A stretch of DNA of 64,000 nucleotides from Altererythrobacter sp. (GCF_050299635.1 NZ_JBNKWF010000001.1:9485-73484); one strand, 5' to 3'; shown: positions 39,510 to 61,282, counted from the first letter of the stretch. Program-made: numbers and translations. Notes: a model not told the origin generated them from the sequence alone.

Positions 39510-40595
39510 TCAGGGGCGAACGTTCGGCCAGCATTGGTGCGGTTCGCCCGTTTTCTCGGTGGGCCAGGTCAATTCATAGACCACCAAAAATCCGTCGTGA
39601 TCGGACAGAGCCGGGCTGCCGGGCCTGCCGTCGAACATCGCCTCGACCCGCACAGGCCGAACGGAAATGCGCTCCCCATCCGCGAAATATTGAAGGTCCT
39701 GCGTATCCATCCAGGGCTCGTCGCCATCCCAGGAAATCTGCACATCGCAAGTGGCATCGTGTTCAAGGCAATATTCGTGGACCAGGATCGTTCCGTCATC
39801 GGGCCTTGAGAAATCGAACCGAATGTCGCTGCCCCGCATATTGAAATCCCCGCCAGCAATAAACGGATTGCGAAGATCGCTGACGGATGATGCGAAGGCC
39901 CTCAGCTCAAGCGTCTGGAGCGCGTGAGCGGAGTTCTGCCGCTCGACACTGACCTTTGAGGCCCTTTGCGAGTTCATGTGGCTGGTCAGCAGTTCCACGG
40001 GATCAGGCAGGCCAGGCAGGGCGATGCGCGCGAAAAGGACGCCCTTGTTGCTAAGGCAGTCGATACCCGCGCAGGCATATTTGCTGAAAGGTTCCGACGC
40101 ATGGAACACGATCGGATACTCGCTTGCGATCGCCAGACCACCGCTCATGAGATGGATGCCCGCCTCCCCTTTGAACAGGTTTCGGCGGCCCTTGGTCTGC
40201 CCGGCGGGTTCAAGCTTGCGGGACTGCGTTCTTGACGGACCCACGGCGAGCGAAGGATAGGTGCTCCCGATTACCGCATCAATGGCAGCCTGGCTGAACA
40301 TCTCCTGGAAGAGGACGACATCGGGTGCGGTTCCGCTGGCGCGAATATCTGCAAGGGCCCGTTCGATCTGTTTAAGGGAAGGTGCGCGATTCTTGCGCGC
40401 TGGCCAGGGCAATCCTTCGATATTGTATGTTAGAACTGTCAGCGTTGTGCGCGCCTGCTTCCCGTCAGGCGAAACAGTGATCTCCGGCGTTTGAGATGTC
40501 GCGCAATCGGCACTGTATGGTTTGGGAAGGCTGGCGCACCCGGCCAGCAGGGGCAGCAACAGCAACTGCCGGAAATGGCCTGCACGCGCGCTCAT
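39510..40595 (-). CDS. Endonuclease/exonuclease/phosphatase (EEP) family lipoprotein, sphingomyelinase-like
   Basis: Lipobox LLAGCAS and EEP motifs (LTYNIEG, VVLFQEMF, GGDFNM, SDHDG). Confidence 0.8.
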   Translation of the reverse strand: MSARAGHFRQLLLLPLLAGCASLPKPYSADCATSQTPEITVSPDGKQARTTLTVLTYNIEGLPWPARKNRAPSLKQIERALADIRASGTAPDVVLFQEMFSQAAIDAVIGSTYPSLAVGPSRTQSRKLEPAGQTKGRRNLFKGEAGIHLMSGGLAIASEYPIVFHASEPFSKYACAGIDCLSNKGVLFARIALPGLPDPVELLTSHMNSQRASKVSVERQNSAHALQTLELRAFASSVSDLRNPFIAGGDFNMRGSDIRFDFSRPDDGTILVHEYCLEHDATCDVQISWDGDEPWMDTQDLQYFADGERISVRPVRVEAMFDGRPGSPALSDHDGFLVVYELTWPTEKTGEPHQCWPNVRP

Positions 40596-40630: not shown

Positions 40631-41263
40631 TTACATCCCCGCTTCGACTGCCAGGCGGATCGCTTCGGCATTGGTCGCTGCGCCGATCGATTTCAGCATG
40701 GCGGCGCGATGCATCTTCACCGTTCGCTCACTCAGCCCGAGTTCGAATGCAACCTGCTTGGTCAGCTTGCCCTCCGCAATTCCGCGAAGCACTTCGACCT
40801 GGCGAGGAGTCAGCTTACTGACCGCTTCCTTCGCCTTTCGGCGCCGCTCGCCGAGCAAGCTCGTGGCATTCCCATTGGCCGCGCGATGGCCAGGCACAGA
40901 GGTTTCGACATGCGAACCGAGGATCCCGCTGACATTGCCCCTGTCGTCATAGACAGGCGCTGTCATGATCGCGTTCATGAAAGACGATCCGTCTTTCCTG
41001 TAACAAAGGAGCTCGACCATGACCGGCCGGAGACTGTCGATCCCCTCCTGTAATTGCCTGACCTTCTCCAGATCGGTTCCCGGACCAATCAGGAACTGCC
41101 AGTTGCGGCCCACGACTTCGTGGCGCTGATAGCCGGTCAGCTCCAGAAAACAGTCGTTACAGTCCATGATGGGGTTGCCGGCATGGTATGGATTCCTGAC
41201 TGTGAAACCGATCCGGTTCAGCGAATCAAGATTGGATAGCGTCATGGAATTGTCCAAGACCAA
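40631..41263 (-). CDS. LOV-like PAS domain + LuxR-type HTH regulator with degenerate flavin-adduct site (Cys->Trp)
   Basis: EL222-like architecture. The LOV core reads GRNWQFLIGPGTD instead of GxNCRFLxG. C-terminal HTH LTPRQVEVLRGIAEGKLTKQVAFELGLSERTVKMHRAAMLKSIG. Confidence 0.85.
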   Translation of the reverse strand: MVLDNSMTLSNLDSLNRIGFTVRNPYHAGNPIMDCNDCFLELTGYQRHEVVGRNWQFLIGPGTDLEKVRQLQEGIDSLRPVMVELLCYRKDGSSFMNAIMTAPVYDDRGNVSGILGSHVETSVPGHRAANGNATSLLGERRRKAKEAVSKLTPRQVEVLRGIAEGKLTKQVAFELGLSERTVKMHRAAMLKSIGAATNAEAIRLAVEAGM

Positions 41264-41442: not shown

Positions 41443-41464
41443 AACCCGTCCCAAGGGGCAGGTT
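41443..41464. promoter_or_regulatory. Palindrome family site C: AACCCGT-CCCAAGGG-GCAGGTT
   Basis: About 190 nt upstream of the degenerate LOV-HTH ATG. It shares 19 contiguous nt with site D. Confidence 0.4.
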
Positions 41465-43535: not shown

Positions 43536-43557
43536 AACCTGCACATTGGGGCAGGTT
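43536..43557. promoter_or_regulatory. Palindrome family site B: AACCTGC-ACATTGGG-GCAGGTT (perfect 7-bp arms)
   Basis: Lies in the divergent intergenic region between marC-like (ATG 43414) and tamA (ATG 43650 or 43608). Confidence 0.5.
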
Positions 43558-43649: not shown

Positions 43650-45806
43650 ATGTTTCGTTGGCAGAATGCCTTACGCGGCCAGTTCCACCACCTTCTTGCC
43701 CTCGGTACCCTTCCGGCAATCGTATCTCTATGCCCGCTCGCATTTGCCCCATCGGCGTCGGCTCAGACGCTCGACGAACTCGTCCCGCCTGACGCCGCCC
43801 GGGACCCTGAAGGCTGGGTTGAAGACGGGATTGCTGGCGACCAGAGGGCAGAGCCAGATCAACCCGCAGATGAATCGCGCGCGCGCGGTGAGACTGACCT
43901 CCCCTGGCCCGGAGAAGGCGAACTCGACCTACCCCCTCCCCTCCAGCCCGATGAAACGCTCGTATTCGACGATGGCTGGTTGGACGAACAGGGGCCGGAG
44001 AGCGAGCTGGAAATCCTGACGATTGCTGAGGGGTTGGAACTGGACCTGCCCGAAAGCCTTCTCGCCCGACCCGAATGGGACGATATCCTGCGGCGGTTCA
44101 ACTCACTTTCGAATGTCGTCACGCTTTCCTCAGAAAAGGAAAACTTTGCGCAATTGGCGGTAAGAGCCAGCCATGACGAGGAACTGCTCGGCCAGCTCCT
44201 GCGCATTCACGGCTACTACGATGCACGCGTTTCACATTCGCTGGAGGCGCAATCGCTCATTGAAGATGATGCTGCTGCCGAAGTCTGGCCCTCTGTCCGA
44301 TTTCGTATTCTCCCCGGCGACCAATTCCGCTTCGGTTCGATCGATCTCGGTCAACTTGAGCAGACCGGCCAGGACTATCCAGCCCTGCGTGAAGGCTTCG
44401 AGATTGAGCCCGGCGATCCGGTCCTTTCGGATGTTATCGAGCAGGAACGTGCAGATCTGGAAGAGGTGCTTGGTGAAGCCGGCTATCCCTTCGCCGCGAT
44501 CGACGAGCCGCATCTGCTGATCCATTCCGATCGCAGCGAAGCCGATCTGACAATGCAGGTTGAACCGGGAGGCAAATATGTCGTCGGATCGATCGCAAGT
44601 CTCCAGCCCGATTTCCTCTCGTCGCGCCATCTCGCGAGGCTGGCGCGCTTCCAGACCGGCGAACTGGTCAGGCAATCGAGCATGCTCGATTTGCGGCGCG
44701 CCATATTGGCCACCGGGCTCGTCTCCAATGTCGACATCACACCAAAAGAGGCGAACGCCCCTGTTGGCGAAATCCCCGGCGTGGCTGATCTGGAAATCGA
44801 CATGACCGAAGCACCGCTGCGCAGCATAGAGCTGGGCGCGGGCTATGGCACCGACCGGGGCTATCAACTCTCCGGCAGTTGGGAGCACCGCAATCTCTTC
44901 CCACCGGAAGGCATGTTGCGCCTGCACGGAATTCTGGGAACCCGCGAGCAGGAAGCGGGTGTCACCTTCAGGCGTAGCAATCTGGGTGGGCGCGACCGGA
45001 TACTGACCGTTGGCCTCAACGGCGACATCCAGAAACGCAATGCCTACAAGGCCCGGCGAGCGACCTTCACCGCTTCTTTCGAGAAGAAGAGCACAATCCT
45101 CTATCAGAAAGGGTTCGCCTGGGGAGCAGGGATCGAAGCGACGATTTCCGAGGAGGCCGAAAAGACCGCCTCGGGCAAATTGGGCGAGCGCAAGACATAC
45201 AAGGTCGGAGCAATCCCGCTCCATGGACTTTACGATACCACCACCGACCTGCTCGATCCGGTCAGCGGCTTCAAGCTCGCCTTGCAGCTCTCCCCTGAGA
45301 TCTCGCTCGAAAGCGGGAACGCCCCGGCCTATCTTTGGGGGCGGATCGACGCTTCGACCTATTTCAGCATTGGCGAACGATCGATCCTGGCGCTGCGCGG
45401 GGCAATTGGCAGCATCGTTGGGACCGAACTGGACAAGGTCGCCCCATCGCGGAGGATGTATGCCGGGGGTGGCCATTCGGTTCGTGGCTATGGCTATGAA
45501 TCAATTGGGAAAAGCTCTGTTCCAGGCCAGCCAAATGGCGGCAGGTCGCTGGCCGAATTCTCGATCGAGGCACGGATTCAGACATCCATGCTCGATGGCG
45601 CACTGTCCGTGGTGCCATTCATCGATGCCGGGACGGTTGGGCCGGATTCCACGCCAAATTTCAAAGAGATCCGCTACGGTGCAGGGGTAGGCCTGAGGTA
45701 CCAGACCGACATAGGGCCGCTGAGGCTCGATCTTGCCACACCGATCAACCCACGTCCCCAGGATGGCTGGCTGGCGGTCTATGCCTCGCTTGGGCAGGCG
45801 TTCTGA
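43650..45806 (+). CDS. tamA: Translocation and assembly module outer membrane component TamA
   Basis: Signal peptide ending PSASAQ, a POTRA-like N-terminal region and an Omp85 barrel ending SLGQAF. A tamB-like giant gene follows directly (TGATG overlap). Confidence 0.85.
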   Translation: MFRWQNALRGQFHHLLALGTLPAIVSLCPLAFAPSASAQTLDELVPPDAARDPEGWVEDGIAGDQRAEPDQPADESRARGETDLPWPGEGELDLPPPLQPDETLVFDDGWLDEQGPESELEILTIAEGLELDLPESLLARPEWDDILRRFNSLSNVVTLSSEKENFAQLAVRASHDEELLGQLLRIHGYYDARVSHSLEAQSLIEDDAAAEVWPSVRFRILPGDQFRFGSIDLGQLEQTGQDYPALREGFEIEPGDPVLSDVIEQERADLEEVLGEAGYPFAAIDEPHLLIHSDRSEADLTMQVEPGGKYVVGSIASLQPDFLSSRHLARLARFQTGELVRQSSMLDLRRAILATGLVSNVDITPKEANAPVGEIPGVADLEIDMTEAPLRSIELGAGYGTDRGYQLSGSWEHRNLFPPEGMLRLHGILGTREQEAGVTFRRSNLGGRDRILTVGLNGDIQKRNAYKARRATFTASFEKKSTILYQKGFAWGAGIEATISEEAEKTASGKLGERKTYKVGAIPLHGLYDTTTDLLDPVSGFKLALQLSPEISLESGNAPAYLWGRIDASTYFSIGERSILALRGAIGSIVGTELDKVAPSRRMYAGGGHSVRGYGYESIGKSSVPGQPNGGRSLAEFSIEARIQTSMLDGALSVVPFIDAGTVGPDSTPNFKEIRYGAGVGLRYQTDIGPLRLDLATPINPRPQDGWLAVYASLGQAF

Positions 45807-48800
45807 TGGCTGCGCGGGCGCCAGATGAGAACGGGGCAGAGGAGGCCCTCAAAAGAACTCAGGCAGGGTTTTGGCTGCGATGGAGTCTGCGAGCCCTTGC
45901 CGGATTGCTGGCCGCAATCGTCGCATTGGCAATTTTGATCGATACGCCAATCGGCCACCGCGCAGTGGCGAATTACGTCGAAGGTTTGCGCCCACAATCC
46001 GGGCTGCGGATCAAGATAGGGGAGATCACGGGATCGCTCTACGGCAAGTCCGCGTTCCACCGGGTTGCGATCGGCGATCCGCAAGGCGATTTCTTGCATG
46101 TACCAATCGCAGAGCTGGATTGGCGCCCGCTCAGCTGGCTCTATTCGGGGCTCGACATTCGCAGCCTTGCCTTGCGCCATGGCCGATTGCATCGTGTGCC
46201 GGCCTTCGACAGTTCCGCTCCCAGCCAGCTCTCATTGCCCGAATTCGATCTCCGTATCGACCGGCTGGAGATCGATGGCCTAGAGATTGCCAAAGGGATC
46301 GCGGGTGACATGCGCAGAATCGATTTTCTCGTCAGCGGCGCCTTGCGTGACGATGCGGTGATGCTTGCGGCAAAGGGGCAACTCGGCGGGACTGACAGGC
46401 TGGCCCTCTCGCTCGACGCCGAACCGGAACAGGACCGTTTCGACATCCATCTTGATTATGTCGCTCCGGCAGGCGGGCTGCTTGCGGGGCTCACAGGCGC
46501 AGAAGAGGAATGGATTGCCCGCGCCAACGGCGATGGCAATTGGGCAAGCTGGAACGGCTCGATCGAAATGGTCCGGTCAGGGTCGCAGTTCGCCGAAGCA
46601 GCCCTCACAAATCGCGCTGGCCTGTTCGATCTGAAAGGAACGATCCGCCCTGCACCATTGCTCGAGGGGCTGGCAAAGCGGGTGGCAGGTGATGCACCGG
46701 CCATCTCCGCACGCGGACGCTTCGACGATCGTATCTACACAGGACTGCTCTCGTTCAAGTCGGACGCCGCCGATATGCAAGGCGAAGGCTCCATCGATCT
46801 GGCCGGAGATCGCTTCGAGCGGTTCGCCGTCAACCTCGCATTGCTCGACCCGGCACTGTTTGGCCCGGCCCTCACGCTTGAAGGGGCACGCCTCGACGCG
46901 ACGCTGAATGGCCCATTCGAAGCGCTCGACATCGATCATCGCCTCACCGTCGACCGGCTGGCTGCGAATTCGATCGAAGCGCAAAATCTGGCACAGAAGG
47001 GAATTGCACGGCCTGGCAAGCAAGGCTGGCAAGTCCCGCTGGATCTGAGCATCGGAAAAATCCGGTCCGGCACTGAAGCCCGAGGCGCGGAACTTTCGGC
47101 AATGCGAATGAATGGCGTGCTGGTTCTCGCCGTGAATGACGGGGACGCGCAGCCCTGGTCGCTCAAGGCGAATGTCAAAGGAATTGCCGGTCGTCTCGAA
47201 GACACATTGATGCAAGGCATCGCTGGACCGCAGATCACATTTTCCGGAAAGCTTAGCGGCGGCCAGTATGGGCCTTGGCGACTGGCCGATGGCGCGTTTA
47301 CCAGCTCTCGCCTGGCGCTTGCGATCGACGCGCAACTGGATGACGGCGATGCCAGCTTCACCGCTAGCGGCAGGCATCGTGAATATGGGAAGTTCTCGTT
47401 TCAGGGATCCATGGCGAACAAGAATCTTGCAGCCACCGCCAGGTTCGAACGCCCCTACGCACCAGCAGGTATCGAAGACGCCCGCATTTCGCTGAAATCG
47501 ATCCCAGGCGGATATGCGCTGGAGGCGGCGAGCGATTCAATGCTGGGCCCTGTCGAAGGCGAGGCCCGGCTGCTGACGGCAAGGGGGGGCCAGCCGCGGC
47601 TGCATGTGGACCGGCTAAACGTCTGGGACACAAGGGTCAGCGGAGAAGTTCGGTTCGATGACGGCGTGTTACTGGGCGAACTCGATATGGCCGGCGGCGG
47701 CCTCTCCGGCCAGGTCGCGTTTTCGCAGGGAAACGGGAAAAACCAGGCCTATTCCGCCGACCTGACAATGAGCGACTTGCAGTTTGGCGGCGACGGGGCA
47801 CTTTCGATCACGCGCGGAACGCTCGCGGCAAAGGGACAATTGATGGGCGAGCGCAGCACGCTCGACGCACTGCTGGATGCACAGGGCGTAGGCTATGGCG
47901 AGCTCTACTTCGGTAGGATGGACGCAAGGGCAGTATTGGCGGAAGGGCGCGGCACGGCCAGCGCCAATCTCGCGGGATATGGCGGCAGCAAGTCCGCGCT
48001 GCAGATCAGGGCTGAACTTACGCCCGGACAAGCGCTGATCGCTGCCCGCGGCCGGTATGACGGCGACAAAATCACTATGCCCCGTCGCGCGCGGCTTTTG
48101 TGGAATGGTGACGGGAGCTGGAGCCTGCGTGAGGCGCAGCTCGATTTCAGCGATGGCTATTTGCAGGTGGAAGCTGGAGCCGAAGCCAGTGGCACCACGC
48201 ACGGCACACTCAGCCTGTCAGGCATGCCGATCGGGATTCTCGATCTGGGTTTGAGGCAGGAAGGCTTGAATGGAACCGCCTCGGGCAAGATCGAATGGTC
48301 TTCGCACGGAGCGGAACCGTTAGAGGGAACCATGCGCCTCGATGTGAAGCGCTTCAGCCGATCCGGCCTTATCCTTACGTCTCAGCCGGTGGACCTGGCG
48401 CTCAATGCCAAACTCACGGCGAGCGGGTTGCAAGCCAAGGCCAATGCAAGGAGTGAAGGCGCGCAATTGGGCCAGATGGCGCTCCGCGTCGACGATCTGC
48501 CTGATGCAGGCACTCTCATCGAGCGGATCGCGCGCGGAAGCCTGTCCGGCTCCGTGAACTATTCAGGCCCCGCCTCGGCGATCTGGCGGCTCGCCGCTAT
48601 CGACGCATTCGACTTCACAGGCCCGATATCGATAGATGCCCGAATGGGGGGCACGCTAGACGGTCCACAGATCGACGGCAGCCTGCGGGGTGACGGGCTG
48701 CGCATGCAAAGTACAATCACCGGTACAGACCTGCGGAATATGGCCGTGCGCGGCTCGTTTACAGGCTCGAGGCTGAATCTGACGCGTTTCAGCGGAACCG

Positions 48801-49825
48801 CCGGTGAGTCCGGCAGGATCAGCGGCAAGGGCACGATCGATCTGGCGGAAACCCTCGATCACGCTCCACGCATCGACATAAGGCTCGCTGCAAAGGACGC
48901 GCGGCTGTTCGACCGTTCCGACATCGCTGCAACGGTTAGCGGCCCCATGCGGATCTATTCGGATGGGCGAACCGGAACGATCGCGGGGCGATTGAGCATT
49001 GAACGGGCGGACTGGCAGCTCGGCAATGCCGACGCGGCGGAAGCATTGCCCCTGATCGATTATAGCTACGCTGGTGAGACAAATGCGCGTGCCATCCCGG
49101 TGAGGCGCAAAGCCAACTGGCGATATCTGGTCGATATTCAGGCCGACGACCATTTGCACGTTGAGGGTCTTGGGCTGATGAGCGAGTGGAGCGCCGATAT
49201 CCGGCTCAGGGGATCGGTGCAGGATCCGCGGATTGGCGGTCGTACCAACTTGCGCCGCGGGGACTTTGCCTTTGCCGGAACGCGGTTCGACATCAAGCGC
49301 GGGAAGATCGAGTTCGACGAGGCAACCGCCCCCGATCCCATCCTGGACATTCAGGCGGAATCGCTGGTCGATGAGCTCAATGTGCAGGTGTCCGTTTCCG
49401 GCAATGCCTCTTCGCCGGAAATTGCCTTCCGCTCTACGCCCGGTCTGCCAGAGGAAGAGATCGTTTCGCGGCTGTTGTTCGGCGACGGATCGGACGGTCT
49501 TTCGACCGGCAACGCCCTGCAACTTGGCGCGGCGGTATCGGCGCTCCGATCCGGCGGCGGACTTGGCCCGATAAATGGCCTTCGCGGGATGCTCGGGATC
49601 GACCGGTTGAGGCTGCTTGCGCCCAATCCTTCGATCGAGCGCGAAACGGCAATCGCAGTCGGCAAGCATTTCACCCGTCGGCTCTATGCCGAACTGATCA
49701 CTGACGGGCAGAGATACAGCGCCACCCAGTTGGAGTTCCGCCTGACCAATTGGCTGTCACTGTTCGCGCATACCTCGTCGATCAGGCAGAACCACGCCAG
49801 CCTGGAATATCGCAAGGACTATTGA
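45806..49825 (+). CDS. tamB: Translocation and assembly module inner membrane component TamB
   Basis: 1339 aa with an N-terminal signal anchor (LRALAGLLAAIVALAILI), a long beta-rich body and a DUF490-like C-terminus. Confidence 0.85.
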   Translation: MAARAPDENGAEEALKRTQAGFWLRWSLRALAGLLAAIVALAILIDTPIGHRAVANYVEGLRPQSGLRIKIGEITGSLYGKSAFHRVAIGDPQGDFLHVPIAELDWRPLSWLYSGLDIRSLALRHGRLHRVPAFDSSAPSQLSLPEFDLRIDRLEIDGLEIAKGIAGDMRRIDFLVSGALRDDAVMLAAKGQLGGTDRLALSLDAEPEQDRFDIHLDYVAPAGGLLAGLTGAEEEWIARANGDGNWASWNGSIEMVRSGSQFAEAALTNRAGLFDLKGTIRPAPLLEGLAKRVAGDAPAISARGRFDDRIYTGLLSFKSDAADMQGEGSIDLAGDRFERFAVNLALLDPALFGPALTLEGARLDATLNGPFEALDIDHRLTVDRLAANSIEAQNLAQKGIARPGKQGWQVPLDLSIGKIRSGTEARGAELSAMRMNGVLVLAVNDGDAQPWSLKANVKGIAGRLEDTLMQGIAGPQITFSGKLSGGQYGPWRLADGAFTSSRLALAIDAQLDDGDASFTASGRHREYGKFSFQGSMANKNLAATARFERPYAPAGIEDARISLKSIPGGYALEAASDSMLGPVEGEARLLTARGGQPRLHVDRLNVWDTRVSGEVRFDDGVLLGELDMAGGGLSGQVAFSQGNGKNQAYSADLTMSDLQFGGDGALSITRGTLAAKGQLMGERSTLDALLDAQGVGYGELYFGRMDARAVLAEGRGTASANLAGYGGSKSALQIRAELTPGQALIAARGRYDGDKITMPRRARLLWNGDGSWSLREAQLDFSDGYLQVEAGAEASGTTHGTLSLSGMPIGILDLGLRQEGLNGTASGKIEWSSHGAEPLEGTMRLDVKRFSRSGLILTSQPVDLALNAKLTASGLQAKANARSEGAQLGQMALRVDDLPDAGTLIERIARGSLSGSVNYSGPASAIWRLAAIDAFDFTGPISIDARMGGTLDGPQIDGSLRGDGLRMQSTITGTDLRNMAVRGSFTGSRLNLTRFSGTAGESGRISGKGTIDLAETLDHAPRIDIRLAAKDARLFDRSDIAATVSGPMRIYSDGRTGTIAGRLSIERADWQLGNADAAEALPLIDYSYAGETNARAIPVRRKANWRYLVDIQADDHLHVEGLGLMSEWSADIRLRGSVQDPRIGGRTNLRRGDFAFAGTRFDIKRGKIEFDEATAPDPILDIQAESLVDELNVQVSVSGNASSPEIAFRSTPGLPEEEIVSRLLFGDGSDGLSTGNALQLGAAVSALRSGGGLGPINGLRGMLGIDRLRLLAPNPSIERETAIAVGKHFTRRLYAELITDGQRYSATQLEFRLTNWLSLFAHTSSIRQNHASLEYRKDY

Positions 49826-55817: not shown

Positions 55818-55839
55818 AACCTGTATCAATGGACAGGTT
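55818..55839. promoter_or_regulatory. Palindrome family site A: AACCTGT-ATCAATGG-ACAGGTT (perfect lux-box-type dyad)
   Basis: ACCTGT-N8-ACAGGT has the same arms and spacing as the V. fischeri lux box. It lies in the divergent region about 125 nt upstream of the canonical LOV-HTH ATG and about 133 nt upstream of the minus-strand operon ATG. Confidence 0.5.
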
Positions 55840-55855: not shown

Positions 55856-55878
55856 CAATCGGCAAGCAATGCCGATTG
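55856..55878. promoter_or_regulatory. Second palindrome CAATCGGCA-AGCAA-TGCCGATTG upstream of LOV-HTH
   Basis: Perfect 9-bp arms, 76-98 nt upstream of the ATG at 55954. Confidence 0.35.
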
Positions 55879-55953: not shown

Positions 55954-56544
55954 ATGACTTTAACCAGGCTCGAATCCCTGGATGATGTCGCATTCATCGC
56001 GACCGATCCGCGCTTGCCGGACAATCCGATCGTCGATTGCAATGACAGTTTTCTGAAACTGACAGGCTATGAGCGCGACGAGGTTATCGGCCATAACTGC
56101 CGCTTGCTGGCGGGGCCCGGAACCGATCCGGAAAAACGGCGGCAACTGCGCGAAGCGATCGCTGATGAGCAGCCGATCATGGTCAAGCTGCTCAATTACA
56201 AGAAGGACGGCACACCCTTCATGAACGCCGTGATGGTCGTGCCGATCTATGGCGACGACCGCGAGTTGATCGGCTATCTCGGCTCGCAGCTCGACGTAAG
56301 CTCTTCAAGCGACATTTCCCTGGAAGAACGCACAGCCAAGGCACGCAAGGCTATGGCCAGGCTCAGCCCGCGCCAGGCTCAGGTTCTCAACGGTCTGGTG
56401 GATGGCAAACTCATCAAACAACTCGCCTATGACCTCGACTTGAGCGAACGGACCATCAAGATGCACCGCGCCGCCATGCTGAAATCGATCGGCGCGTCGA
56501 ACAATGCAGAAGCGATCCGGATAGCAGTCGAAGCGGGGCTTTAG
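55954..56544 (+). CDS. LOV-HTH blue-light-regulated transcription factor (EL222-like)
   Basis: Canonical LOV core GHNCRLLAGPGTD with NYKKDGTPFMNAV and LGSQLDV. C-terminal LuxR-type HTH LSPRQAQVLNGLVDGKLIKQLAYDLDLSERTIKMHRAAMLKSIG ... RIAVEAGL. Confidence 0.9.
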   Translation: MTLTRLESLDDVAFIATDPRLPDNPIVDCNDSFLKLTGYERDEVIGHNCRLLAGPGTDPEKRRQLREAIADEQPIMVKLLNYKKDGTPFMNAVMVVPIYGDDRELIGYLGSQLDVSSSSDISLEERTAKARKAMARLSPRQAQVLNGLVDGKLIKQLAYDLDLSERTIKMHRAAMLKSIGASNNAEAIRIAVEAGL

Positions 56545-59389: not shown

Positions 59390-61177
59390 TCAGATCCCGT
59401 CGCGATGACGAACCTTGCCATCCATGATCGTGAAGAGGATCTTCACTTGATCGATCTTGTGCGGGTCGACCTCGAACAGATTTTGATCGAGCACGACCAT
59501 GTCGGCCATCTTGCCGACCTCCAGAGAACCGATCTTGTCGTCCAAACCTCTGCCCTTCGCCGCGCCCAGGGTTTGCGCGTAGATCGCCATGTCGAGAGGA
59601 ACACGTGCCTCCTCGCCCCCAAGCGGCGGAACATTGTCGCGACCCGGCAGTTGACGGGTCACAGCGGTGCGGATGGAAAGTAGGGGCTTGTATTCAGAAA
59701 GATATCCCGACGCCGGCCAGTCTGAGCCGAGGGATATGTTTCCGCCGGCCTCCCTGATTTTCTTCATCGGGAACATGGCCTGGACGCGGGCAGCGCCAAA
59801 GCGCTCGGTGGTAATGCTCTGGAGGAGTGGATCAAAACTCATCCAGAAACCGGTCGTGTCATAGGTCACCCCGACCTTGGCGAGGCGGGGAATATCCTGC
59901 GGGCTGACCAGGACGGCATGCGAGACGGCGAAATGGCTTTCCGTCGCGGGATTGGCCTTCCTTGCCGCCTCGGTTGCGTCAATCAACTTGCGTACGGCGA
60001 GATCGCCAAAGCAATGACAGGTGACATTCAGCCCCTTGGCGGCGGCTTCGGCTACAACCTTGTTGAGGATGTCATAGGGAATGATCGGATCGGGCTTGGC
60101 ATCCGGCTTGTCGGCATAGGGCTCGGTCAGGAGCGCACTCCACTTTTCGTCGCCGCCGTCGAGATTGATCTTGAGGGTGTCAACTTCAACCAGTTCGGAT
60201 TTGTACTTTTCCTTCAGCTTGAGGAGCGGCGCTATCGGATCGATCTTGGGATCGTTCCAGTAATAGGATCCCTGCAGGCGGATCGGAAGCCCGCCCTCCT
60301 TTTCGCGGTTCAGAACCCATTCGAAGGCTTCTTCGTTGGTCACGCCCTGGACGCCGTAATCGAATACCGTGGTGATCCCTGCGGCAGAGAATTTGGGCAG
60401 CCAATCCTTGACGCCTTCCAGGACGGTGTCGGCGTTGAACGTCCTCAGCTTGGTCAGCACCTGCAATTGTGCGGGCACTTCGATGATGAAACCGGTTGGA
60501 TTTCCATCCGCATCCTTATCGAAGAACGAATAGCCGGGAACAGTCTCGGGCGTATCCTTGTCGACCCCGGCAATCTCCAGTGCCTTGGAATTTACAAAGG
60601 CGCTATGGCCGTCGACCGTCCAGAGATAGATTGGACGTTCGGATTCGACCTCGTCGAACATGGCCTTTGTCGGCAAACCATCCGAGAAGGTGCTGAGGCG
60701 CACGCCGTAGCCCTCAATAACCTCGAGATCGGGATTGTCCTTCACATACTGGCGAAGCTTTTCGAACACCTCGTCCTTGTCGTCGGTTTGCAGGTCCACA
60801 CCTTGGGCTACGATGCCCCCGGCAATCATATGAAAATGCCCTTCGACAAAGCCGGGGACCACCATCTTGCCTTCGAGGTCAACGACATTGGTCGCAATGC
60901 CGATCTGGTCCTTGAGGCCTTGGGCATCGCCGACATAAGTGATCTTGTTGTCCTCGACCACGATCGCCGAAGCCCAGGGCTGCTTCGGATTCATCGTATA
61001 GATCTTGCCGTTGATCAGTGCCCAGTCCGAGCGCGGATTGGCGCGGTTGGAGATGCCCTTATCAAACGACAGTGCGTTTCCATTCGGCGTGGTAGGCGCG
61101 GTAGTCTGCGCGAGCACCATCTGTGAGGCAGCGGCGATCGAAACCGCCGCGAATGGTGCCAGGAACTTGCTGTACAT
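59390..61177 (-). CDS. Exported amidohydrolase-family (Amidohydro_3-like) metal-dependent hydrolase
   Basis: Signal peptide and the HxH metal motif (GFVEGHFHMIAGG). 595 aa TIM-barrel-type hydrolase pattern (HCFGD, SDWP). Confidence 0.8.
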   Translation of the reverse strand: MYSKFLAPFAAVSIAAASQMVLAQTTAPTTPNGNALSFDKGISNRANPRSDWALINGKIYTMNPKQPWASAIVVEDNKITYVGDAQGLKDQIGIATNVVDLEGKMVVPGFVEGHFHMIAGGIVAQGVDLQTDDKDEVFEKLRQYVKDNPDLEVIEGYGVRLSTFSDGLPTKAMFDEVESERPIYLWTVDGHSAFVNSKALEIAGVDKDTPETVPGYSFFDKDADGNPTGFIIEVPAQLQVLTKLRTFNADTVLEGVKDWLPKFSAAGITTVFDYGVQGVTNEEAFEWVLNREKEGGLPIRLQGSYYWNDPKIDPIAPLLKLKEKYKSELVEVDTLKINLDGGDEKWSALLTEPYADKPDAKPDPIIPYDILNKVVAEAAAKGLNVTCHCFGDLAVRKLIDATEAARKANPATESHFAVSHAVLVSPQDIPRLAKVGVTYDTTGFWMSFDPLLQSITTERFGAARVQAMFPMKKIREAGGNISLGSDWPASGYLSEYKPLLSIRTAVTRQLPGRDNVPPLGGEEARVPLDMAIYAQTLGAAKGRGLDDKIGSLEVGKMADMVVLDQNLFEVDPHKIDQVKILFTIMDGKVRHRDGI

Positions 61178-61260: not shown

Positions 61261-61282
61261 AACCTGCCCATGCGGGCATGTT
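61261..61282. promoter_or_regulatory. Palindrome family site E: AACCTGCCC-ATGC-GGGCATGTT (8 of 9 arm positions complementary)
   Basis: About 94 nt upstream of the amidohydrolase ATG (61177). Confidence 0.45.

Follow-up and report, generated by a model that had tools for sequence, protein, structure and literature searches.

An EL222-type LOV-HTH paralogue of Altererythrobacter sp. with tryptophan at the adduct cysteine site and a remodelled flavin pocket

Degenerate sensor paralogues are familiar from pseudo-receiver domains and catalytically dead GGDEF/EAL domains, in which the signalling domain has lost its defining chemistry but survives as a scaffold or a module for interactions, and the output domain is conserved. 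Natural LOV domains without the adduct-forming Cys, and others without the active-site Gln, are likewise already known, and it is with these systems that we compare a gene found on the minus strand of a 64,000-nt stretch of DNA from Altererythrobacter sp. (GCF_050299635.1, NZ_JBNKWF010000001.1:9485-73484; hereafter the window). The gene encodes a LOV protein with a helix-turn-helix (HTH) output domain in which the adduct Cys is replaced by Trp (hereafter the variant); its likeness to degenerate sensor paralogues is by analogy only. For LOV proteins themselves, removal of the Cys leaves receptors able to signal via the flavin neutral semiquinone, and ∼70 natural Cys-less LOV-like proteins, with Ala, His or Pro at this site and the other conserved residues kept, have been collected (Yee et al., 2015; PMC4682037). 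These LOV* proteins, of which halobacterial BAT LOV* is an example, resemble the variant in being natural LOV homologues without the adduct Cys. They differ from it in that a protein is assigned to the class only if it keeps 9 or more of 10 other conserved flavin-site residues, and in that BAT-LOV* binds flavin, whilst the variant keeps 5 of 9 listed residues; moreover, the replacements named in the main text are Ala, His and Pro rather than Trp, and the GerE/LuxR architecture is absent from the supplementary architecture list (PMC4682037). In YF1, AsLOV2 and PAL, exchange of the active-site Gln for His does not displace the flavin but abolishes adduct formation and the light response (Dietler et al., 2022; PMC9098866), with PAL Q347H locked in a lit-like and YF1 Q123H in a dark-like state. 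The variant also carries His at this position; the Gln-deficient receptors, however, keep the Cys and the rest of the pocket, whereas the variant additionally lacks the Cys, both Arg and one Asn. Lastly, a crystal structure of a LOV protein in the apo state is reported (PMC5314338). Our literature search returned no description of Trp at the LOV Cys site, no degenerate or flavin-free paralogue of LOV-HTH type, and no five-residue flavin-site loss within an otherwise conserved EL222-type regulator, nor such a protein beside a canonical paralogue.

As judged from its sequence, the variant is an intact and conserved PAS-HTH protein of LOV descent that lacks the residues on which the LOV photocycle depends, as well as those of the clamp that holds the phosphate of flavin mononucleotide (FMN). 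The minus-strand open reading frame predicted for it at 40631..41263 was recovered from the window, and the end of its stop codon (TAA, 40631) stood; the start at TTG 41263 did not, as translation probably begins at an ATG 18 nt further in, at 41245. We prefer this ATG because it pairs with Met1 of the canonical LOV-HTH paralogue encoded elsewhere in the window and of P0002 (one of the two nearest database proteins, described below), and because it gives the 204-aa product present in public assemblies; the TTG would add six codons without counterpart in relatives. The coding sequence thus delimited (40631..41245, minus strand; 204 aa plus TAA stop) specifies a protein that begins MTLSNL. The paralogue (55954..56544, plus strand, 196 aa) aligns with it from end to end, as had been claimed, at 54 % identity and 73 % positives (E = 2e-81), the only indel being an in-frame gap in the linker. 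The shared segments cited for this homology are all present, namely NPIMDCNDCFLELTGY in the variant and NPIVDCNDSFLKLTGY in the paralogue, YRKDGSSFMNAIM and YKKDGTPFMNAVM, ERTVKMHRAAMLKSIGA and ERTIKMHRAAMLKSIGA, plus AVEAG, and both proteins match Pfam PAS_9 and GerE.

In order to examine the flavin pocket we aligned the variant with 119 LOV-HTH relatives, EL222 and AsLOV2, whose numbering is used here, and scored every column with a family conservation of 90 % or more, treating as flavin contacts 19 positions that we take, from LOV2 structures, to line the site. The original prediction had concerned the Cys and the adjacent Arg; examined position by position, the changes extend beyond these two residues: the variant departs at 7 of 13 conserved flavin-contact columns, whereas of the 62 conserved columns elsewhere it departs at only 6 (one-sided Fisher test, p = 9e-4). 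In the canonical paralogue 12 of the 13 conserved contacts are kept and one is changed, with departures at 9 of the 62 others. The adduct motif reads GRNWQFLIG in the variant, as predicted, and GHNCRLLAG in the paralogue, so that where the consensus GxNCRFL(Q) carries its Cys the variant has GRNWQFL. Codons 49-50 (41096..41101, minus strand) are TGG, at 41101-41099, and CAG, at 41098-41096, placing Trp49 and Gln50 where the adduct Cys (C450) and the first FMN-phosphate Arg (R451) stand in 119 of 119 relatives each. The second phosphate Arg (R467), found in 115 of the 119, is Gln66 (CAG, 41048..41050, minus strand), and the phosphate clamp of AsLOV2 is accordingly represented in the variant by Q50 and Q66. 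Of the residues that form hydrogen bonds with the flavin ring (N482, N492 and Q513), only N492 is kept, as Asn91: N482, an Asn in 118 of 119 relatives, has become Cys81 (TGT, 41003..41005, minus strand), a replacement that takes two nucleotide substitutions from AAY, and Q513, the signalling Gln found in all 119, has become His112 (CAT, 40910..40912, minus strand). Also retained in the pocket are Asn48, Leu52, Ile69 and Gly110.

An independent published list gives the same picture of pocket loss as our own 19 positions. Of the nine residues named by Yee et al. (YtvA G59, N61, R63, F64, L65, Q66, N94, N104 and Q123), the variant keeps five (G, N, F, L and N104) and the canonical paralogue seven, whilst EL222, counted from our alignment, departs at the Q66 position only. 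Several substitutions place larger residues in the pocket of the variant (Cys to Trp, Ala/Thr to Ile, Val to Ile and Ser/Thr to Arg), which suggests a pocket filled by its own side chains. Amongst individual positions, Ile93 occupies the F494 site, where the family has Val, and Ile108 the F509 site, where the family has Phe. Close by, and in the variant only, Arg replaces Ser/Thr at position 17, and the loop at residues 20-23 reads YHAG instead of RLPD. Finally, a change from Ala to Cys at position 32 creates a CxxC motif found in the variant only (C29-N-D-C32; 41150..41161, minus strand): Cys29 is conserved across the family, and Cys32 occurs in 0 of 121 relatives.

Outside the pocket the architecture is that of EL222, with an N-terminal LOV/PAS domain, a J-alpha helix and a C-terminal LuxR/GerE HTH in ∼200 aa, and homology over the full length. 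The LOV-derived PAS core spans residues 12-116 (40898..41212, minus strand; Pfam PAS_9, 6.9e-16), its fold kept and its flavin pocket remodelled, and matches 138 LOV chains in the PDB at E ≤ 1e-5. The linker that joins the LOV core to the J-alpha helix (residues 117-127; 40865..40897, minus strand) contains the gap, of eight residues relative to the canonical paralogue, and the LuxR/GerE-type HTH covers residues 145-204 (40634..40813, minus strand; Pfam GerE, 1.1e-15). In a profile search, GerE scored 57.4 bits against a curated cut-off of 23.5 over residues 144-199 in the 204-aa numbering (150-205 in the 210-aa translation from the TTG). The best PDB match of the variant sequence is EL222 of Erythrobacter litoralis HTCC2594 (3P7N, 8A5R; phmmer, E = 7e-42), with which it shares a LOV core, a J-alpha helix, a four-helix LuxR/GerE HTH and the same length, as well as the AVEAG motif of the C-terminal helix and the K-MHR of the recognition helix. 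The two align over their full length, at 41 % identity in the Foldseek alignment of the model. EL222 differs, however, in having GRNCRFL, both phosphate arginines, both Asn and the Gln, five of which residues are W, Q, Q, C and H in the variant.

In the AlphaFold2 model of the variant, built from an alignment of 76 sequences, a PAS core is followed by a J-alpha helix and a four-helix HTH; the model is confident, at a mean predicted local distance difference test (pLDDT) score of 86.9, with ∼90-93 across the core and low confidence only at residues 118-127, in the linker. Its core superposes on LOV crystal structures at ∼1 Å, and the full-length model is best matched by EL222 8A5R and 3P7N. When both paralogues were modelled from the same alignment, the template modelling (TM) score to dark-state EL222 was 0.62-0.64 for the variant and 0.81-0.83 for the canonical protein, and the LOV cores fitted the crystal structures at ∼1.0 Å and 0.6-0.7 Å, respectively. 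These models give a weak hint that the LOV and HTH domains pack differently in the variant.

The HTH domains of the two paralogues are 72 % identical. The recognition helix is nearly identical (ERTVKMHRAAMLKSIGA in the variant, ERTIKMHRAAMLKSIGA in the paralogue), as is the C-terminal helix (AEAIRLAVEAG and AEAIRIAVEAG), which is taken to be the dimerisation helix. The similarity extends to the DNA, where the last ∼100 nt of the two genes (40634-40740 and 56441-56541) are 83-87 % identical, codons 180-188 are identical nine in a row, and identical synonymous codons are in excess (p = 0.017); gene conversion between the paralogues may have produced this 3'-end identity. Upstream, we observed copies of a 22-bp palindrome, AACCTG-N10-CAGGTT, of which the window contains four with at most one mismatch where 0.05 are expected. 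The copy that the original prediction had placed upstream of the variant (site C) is real: AACCCGTCCCAAGGGGCAGGTT, at 41443-41464, carries one mismatch, lies 198 bp upstream of the ATG and is a candidate operator. It was found by pattern search, an inverted-repeat finder having returned nothing upstream of the variant, where the arms are imperfect. A perfect copy, AACCTGTATCAATGGACAGGTT (55818..55839), lies 115 bp upstream of the canonical ATG. The remaining two are located in the divergent MarC/TamA intergenic region (43536-43557) and 84 bp upstream of an amidohydrolase gene (61261-61282; gene 59390-61177, minus strand). The Vibrio fischeri lux box reads ACCTGT...ACAGGT, and the palindrome arms resemble it; arms of this kind fit an HTH of LuxR type. 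A second perfect palindrome, CAATCGGCA-N5-TGCCGATTG (55856-55878), is present once in the window, between the first palindrome and the canonical start codon, and has no counterpart upstream of the variant.

In order to place the variant amongst its relatives we searched 5.8 billion proteins for orthologues and found nothing between 56 % and 100 % identity to it, and a scan of 185,579 GTDB species-representative genomes returned 37 loci, all ≤ 51 % identical, without an orthologue. Of these loci 34 were translated; the Cys is present in 34 of 34, and the signalling Gln wherever the motif pattern could read the position. In the databases searched, then, the lineage of the variant is a singleton restricted to one species. 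The canonical paralogue similarly has no close relative, the nearest proteins found being ∼57-60 % identical, and is itself atypical: its motif reads GHNCRLL, with Leu in place of Phe, Tyr occupies the F509 position, and its HTH is farther from the family than that of the variant. The proteins nearest to the variant, P0002 (56 %; L002 1415-2017) and P0003 (53 %; L003 306-908), derive from short metagenome contigs and are 73 % identical to each other. Both lack the adduct Cys, with Pro and Gly in its place, respectively, and both share with the variant a Thr at the V416 position as well as the Gln to His change. The two arginines and the two asparagines are kept in each, with the rest of the flavin site intact. 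The two proteins resemble the LOV* class and are candidate LOV* regulators of photoreduction or redox type. Their clade also carries a C-terminal Cys-Cys. The contigs (2.0 kb for P0002 and 1.1 kb for P0003) have no common neighbours and no palindrome, and a further protein search that started from P0002 yielded P0003 as its sole addition.

Amongst ∼210 other nearest LOV-HTH proteins the Cys is present in all. In a neighbour-joining tree the variant, the canonical copy, P0002 and P0003 cluster together, with low bootstrap values inside the group of 41 % for the variant with the canonical copy and of 10 % for monophyly of the three Cys-less proteins; the Cys may accordingly have been lost once or twice. 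Additionally, when 1.84 billion cluster representatives were searched with a profile of the three Cys-less proteins, the matches were dominated by multi-PAS proteins and included few LOV-HTH-like representatives, but more distant Cys-less LOV-HTH-like proteins were recovered, namely P0199 (Leu), P0201 (Pro), P0238 (His) and P0249 (Ala). In P0238 the degeneracy is on a par with that of the variant (C to H, R to H, R to G, N to S and Q to Y), which indicates that the flavin site has been dismantled within the LOV-HTH architecture more than once. Between P0002 and P0003 the ratio of nonsynonymous to synonymous substitution (dN/dS) is 0.20 at a dS of 0.89, with a value of 0.19 for the LOV core. 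The two proteins are thus functional, and purifying selection maintains LOV-HTH proteins that lack the Cys and bear the His.

The reading that we favour, and consider rather probable, is that the variant is a functional one-component regulator descended from an EL222-type photoreceptor, which has lost its photochemistry and regulates independently of light on the palindromes common to the pair. The LOV domain would be unable to form the cysteinyl-flavin adduct, its pocket would probably no longer hold FMN, and blue light would hence not gate its binding to DNA; neither dimerisation nor DNA binding is predicted to be induced by such light. As the recognition and C-terminal helices are almost identical in the two proteins, the variant most likely binds the same lux-box-like palindromes as the canonical paralogue. 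There it may set a light-independent level of regulation, either through competition with the photoreceptor or through mixed dimers. The proposal that this is a light-blind or differently gated paralogue, rather than one in decay, is supported by each sequence-level test made, and more strongly than first argued, the changes at Gln66, Cys81 and His112 adding to those at the Cys and Arg from which it had been drawn.

Several points weigh against this reading. Both the cofactor content and the light response of the variant are deduced from residues. With flavin still bound in the Gln to His receptors, and with crystal structures in existence for CagFbFP Q148H and for miniSOG R57Q (R57 was confirmed to be the R467 equivalent, Gln66 in the variant), single substitutions alone need not expel flavin, and some flavin, for example riboflavin, could occupy the pocket. 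The lineage is a singleton known only from draft assemblies that are ∼99.5 % identical, too alike to demonstrate conservation of the Trp over evolutionary time; the one nucleotide difference seen within the species is nonsynonymous (L59P), and selection on the variant may have been relaxed recently. As to the DNA, the 386 kb that surround 35 LOV-HTH genes in other sphingomonads contain no copy of the palindrome (≤ 1 mismatch), and the case for the palindromes as operators of the pair is circumstantial, drawn from their association in a single genome.

Departing from simple loss of photochemistry, it is possible, if only tentatively so, that the pocket, with Trp49, His112, Cys81 and C29-x-x-C32, has been converted to sense something else (the redox state of thiols, a metal, a ligand other than flavin, or light through a Trp-flavin radical pair), or that the variant acts as a pseudo-photoreceptor subunit in mixed dimers that tune the light response. 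Another view is that it remains a flavoprotein sensor of non-canonical chemistry, which holds a flavin and senses light or redox through flavin reduction, for instance by an electron from Trp49, much as engineered and natural Cys-less LOV proteins signal via the neutral semiquinone; with Gln in place of both arginines of the phosphate clamp, the flavin would possibly be riboflavin and not FMN. That Cys-less LOV proteins can signal by photoreduction, that ∼70 of them exist in nature (PMC4682037) and that Gln to His variants still bind flavin (PMC9098866) all speak for it, as do miniSOG structures with Gln at the R467 equivalent and loaded with riboflavin (7qf2, 7qf3 and 7qf4) and the retention of Asn48, Asn91, Leu52, Ile69 and Gly110. 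Nevertheless, we regard it as unlikely, for here the Cys, R451, R467, N482 and Q513 contacts are gone together, only five of the nine Yee et al. residues are kept where LOV-like proteins are held to at least 9 of 10, and the Gln to His variants that still bind flavin have neither photocycle nor light response (PMC9098866). Furthermore, an indole at the Cys position would probably clash with the isoalloxazine ring.

The pocket might otherwise have been repurposed, with a small molecule, a metal or thiol redox sensed via His112, Cys81, Trp49 and C29-x-x-C32 and gating the HTH. PAS domains commonly bind diverse ligands, and the substitutions are non-random and concentrated in the pocket; the Asn to Cys change took two nucleotide steps, Cys32, which completes the CxxC, is unique amongst 121 relatives, and residues 20-23 have changed from RLPD to YHAG. 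Set against this, however, no related protein has the same set of residues, the new residues come without evidence of conservation, and no ligand-related genes are evident nearby, such that we hold repurposing of this kind to be distinctly doubtful.

We also considered whether the variant is a decaying relic, that is, a gene copy whose cofactor site has been lost and which is on its way to becoming a functionless pseudogene. In addition to the restriction of the lineage to one species and the nonsynonymous character of its sole internal difference, the non-contact LOV scaffold is slightly less conserved than that of the canonical paralogue, with mean identities to 117 relatives of 50 % and 55 %, respectively. 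Over the HTH, on the other hand, the variant is closer to the same relatives than is the canonical protein (67.5 % versus 58.9 %), and it is at the 19 contact positions that its identity falls to 33 %, versus 71 %. Its departures from conserved columns are gathered at the flavin contacts and not spread evenly (p = 9e-4, as above). Decay is unlikely because the HTH is well conserved and the departures are concentrated at the flavin contacts. The 204-codon reading frame is intact, with its only indel in-frame and in the linker, and codon usage is native (GC content at third codon positions 0.71, versus 0.72 in the canonical gene). Pairwise dN/dS between the variant and the canonical gene is ∼0.23, and 0.16 over the HTH, with dS near saturation. 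The gene moreover has its own upstream palindrome and a probable operon partner, described below. Taken with these observations, we assign the relic very little probability.

A sequencing or assembly artefact at codon 49 is negligibly probable, for even though TGG is one base from TGC or TGT, it is found in five independent assemblies (the window, GCA_050302055.1, GCA_050305155.1, GCA_050299355.1 and the Logan assembly of SRR36185849), and four more key pocket residues are changed besides. The identical protein is encoded in GCA_050305155.1, GCA_050299355.1 and the Logan assembly, and GCA_050302055.1 (Altererythrobacter sp.) encodes the one-residue form, L59P. As the 20.6-kb locus of the latter is 99.5 % identical to the window, we take the assemblies to be strains of one species.

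Directly downstream of the variant, starting 35 nt after its stop codon, is a gene of the Exo_endo_phos family (39510..40595, minus strand), the product of which has a lipoprotein-signal-like N-terminus (LAGC). Judging by this arrangement it is probably co-transcribed with the variant, and for that reason is a candidate for a regulated target. On the other side, directly upstream of the variant, is a shorter Omp85-family gene (41537-42523/42781, minus strand), the start annotation of which varies between assemblies (328 or 414 aa); the locus is also adjoined by a TamA (Omp85) and TamB pair at 43650-49825.

EL222-type LOV-HTH proteins underlie widely used optogenetic tools, whilst little is known of their natural biology. 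Trp at the Cys site, together with the combined loss of Cys, Arg, Arg, Asn and Gln, extends the known natural variation at LOV active sites, and Cys-less LOV-HTH proteins, as the wider searches show, turn up repeatedly and evolve under purifying selection. Were the pocket of the variant to accommodate a new ligand or signal, this would be an instance of sensor repurposing; otherwise, it is an ordinary degenerate sensor domain. Within one genome, this species offers a natural pair, in which a canonical photoreceptor stands beside a paralogue whose flavin site is dismantled and whose DNA-binding domain is highly conserved, with a palindrome of the same type upstream of each. As such, the pair may serve as a system for asking how a LOV scaffold can be stabilised in the absence of its chromophore, whether expression in the dark state is set by light-blind paralogues that compete with photoreceptors or form heterodimers with them, and what the natural operator of the EL222-type family is.

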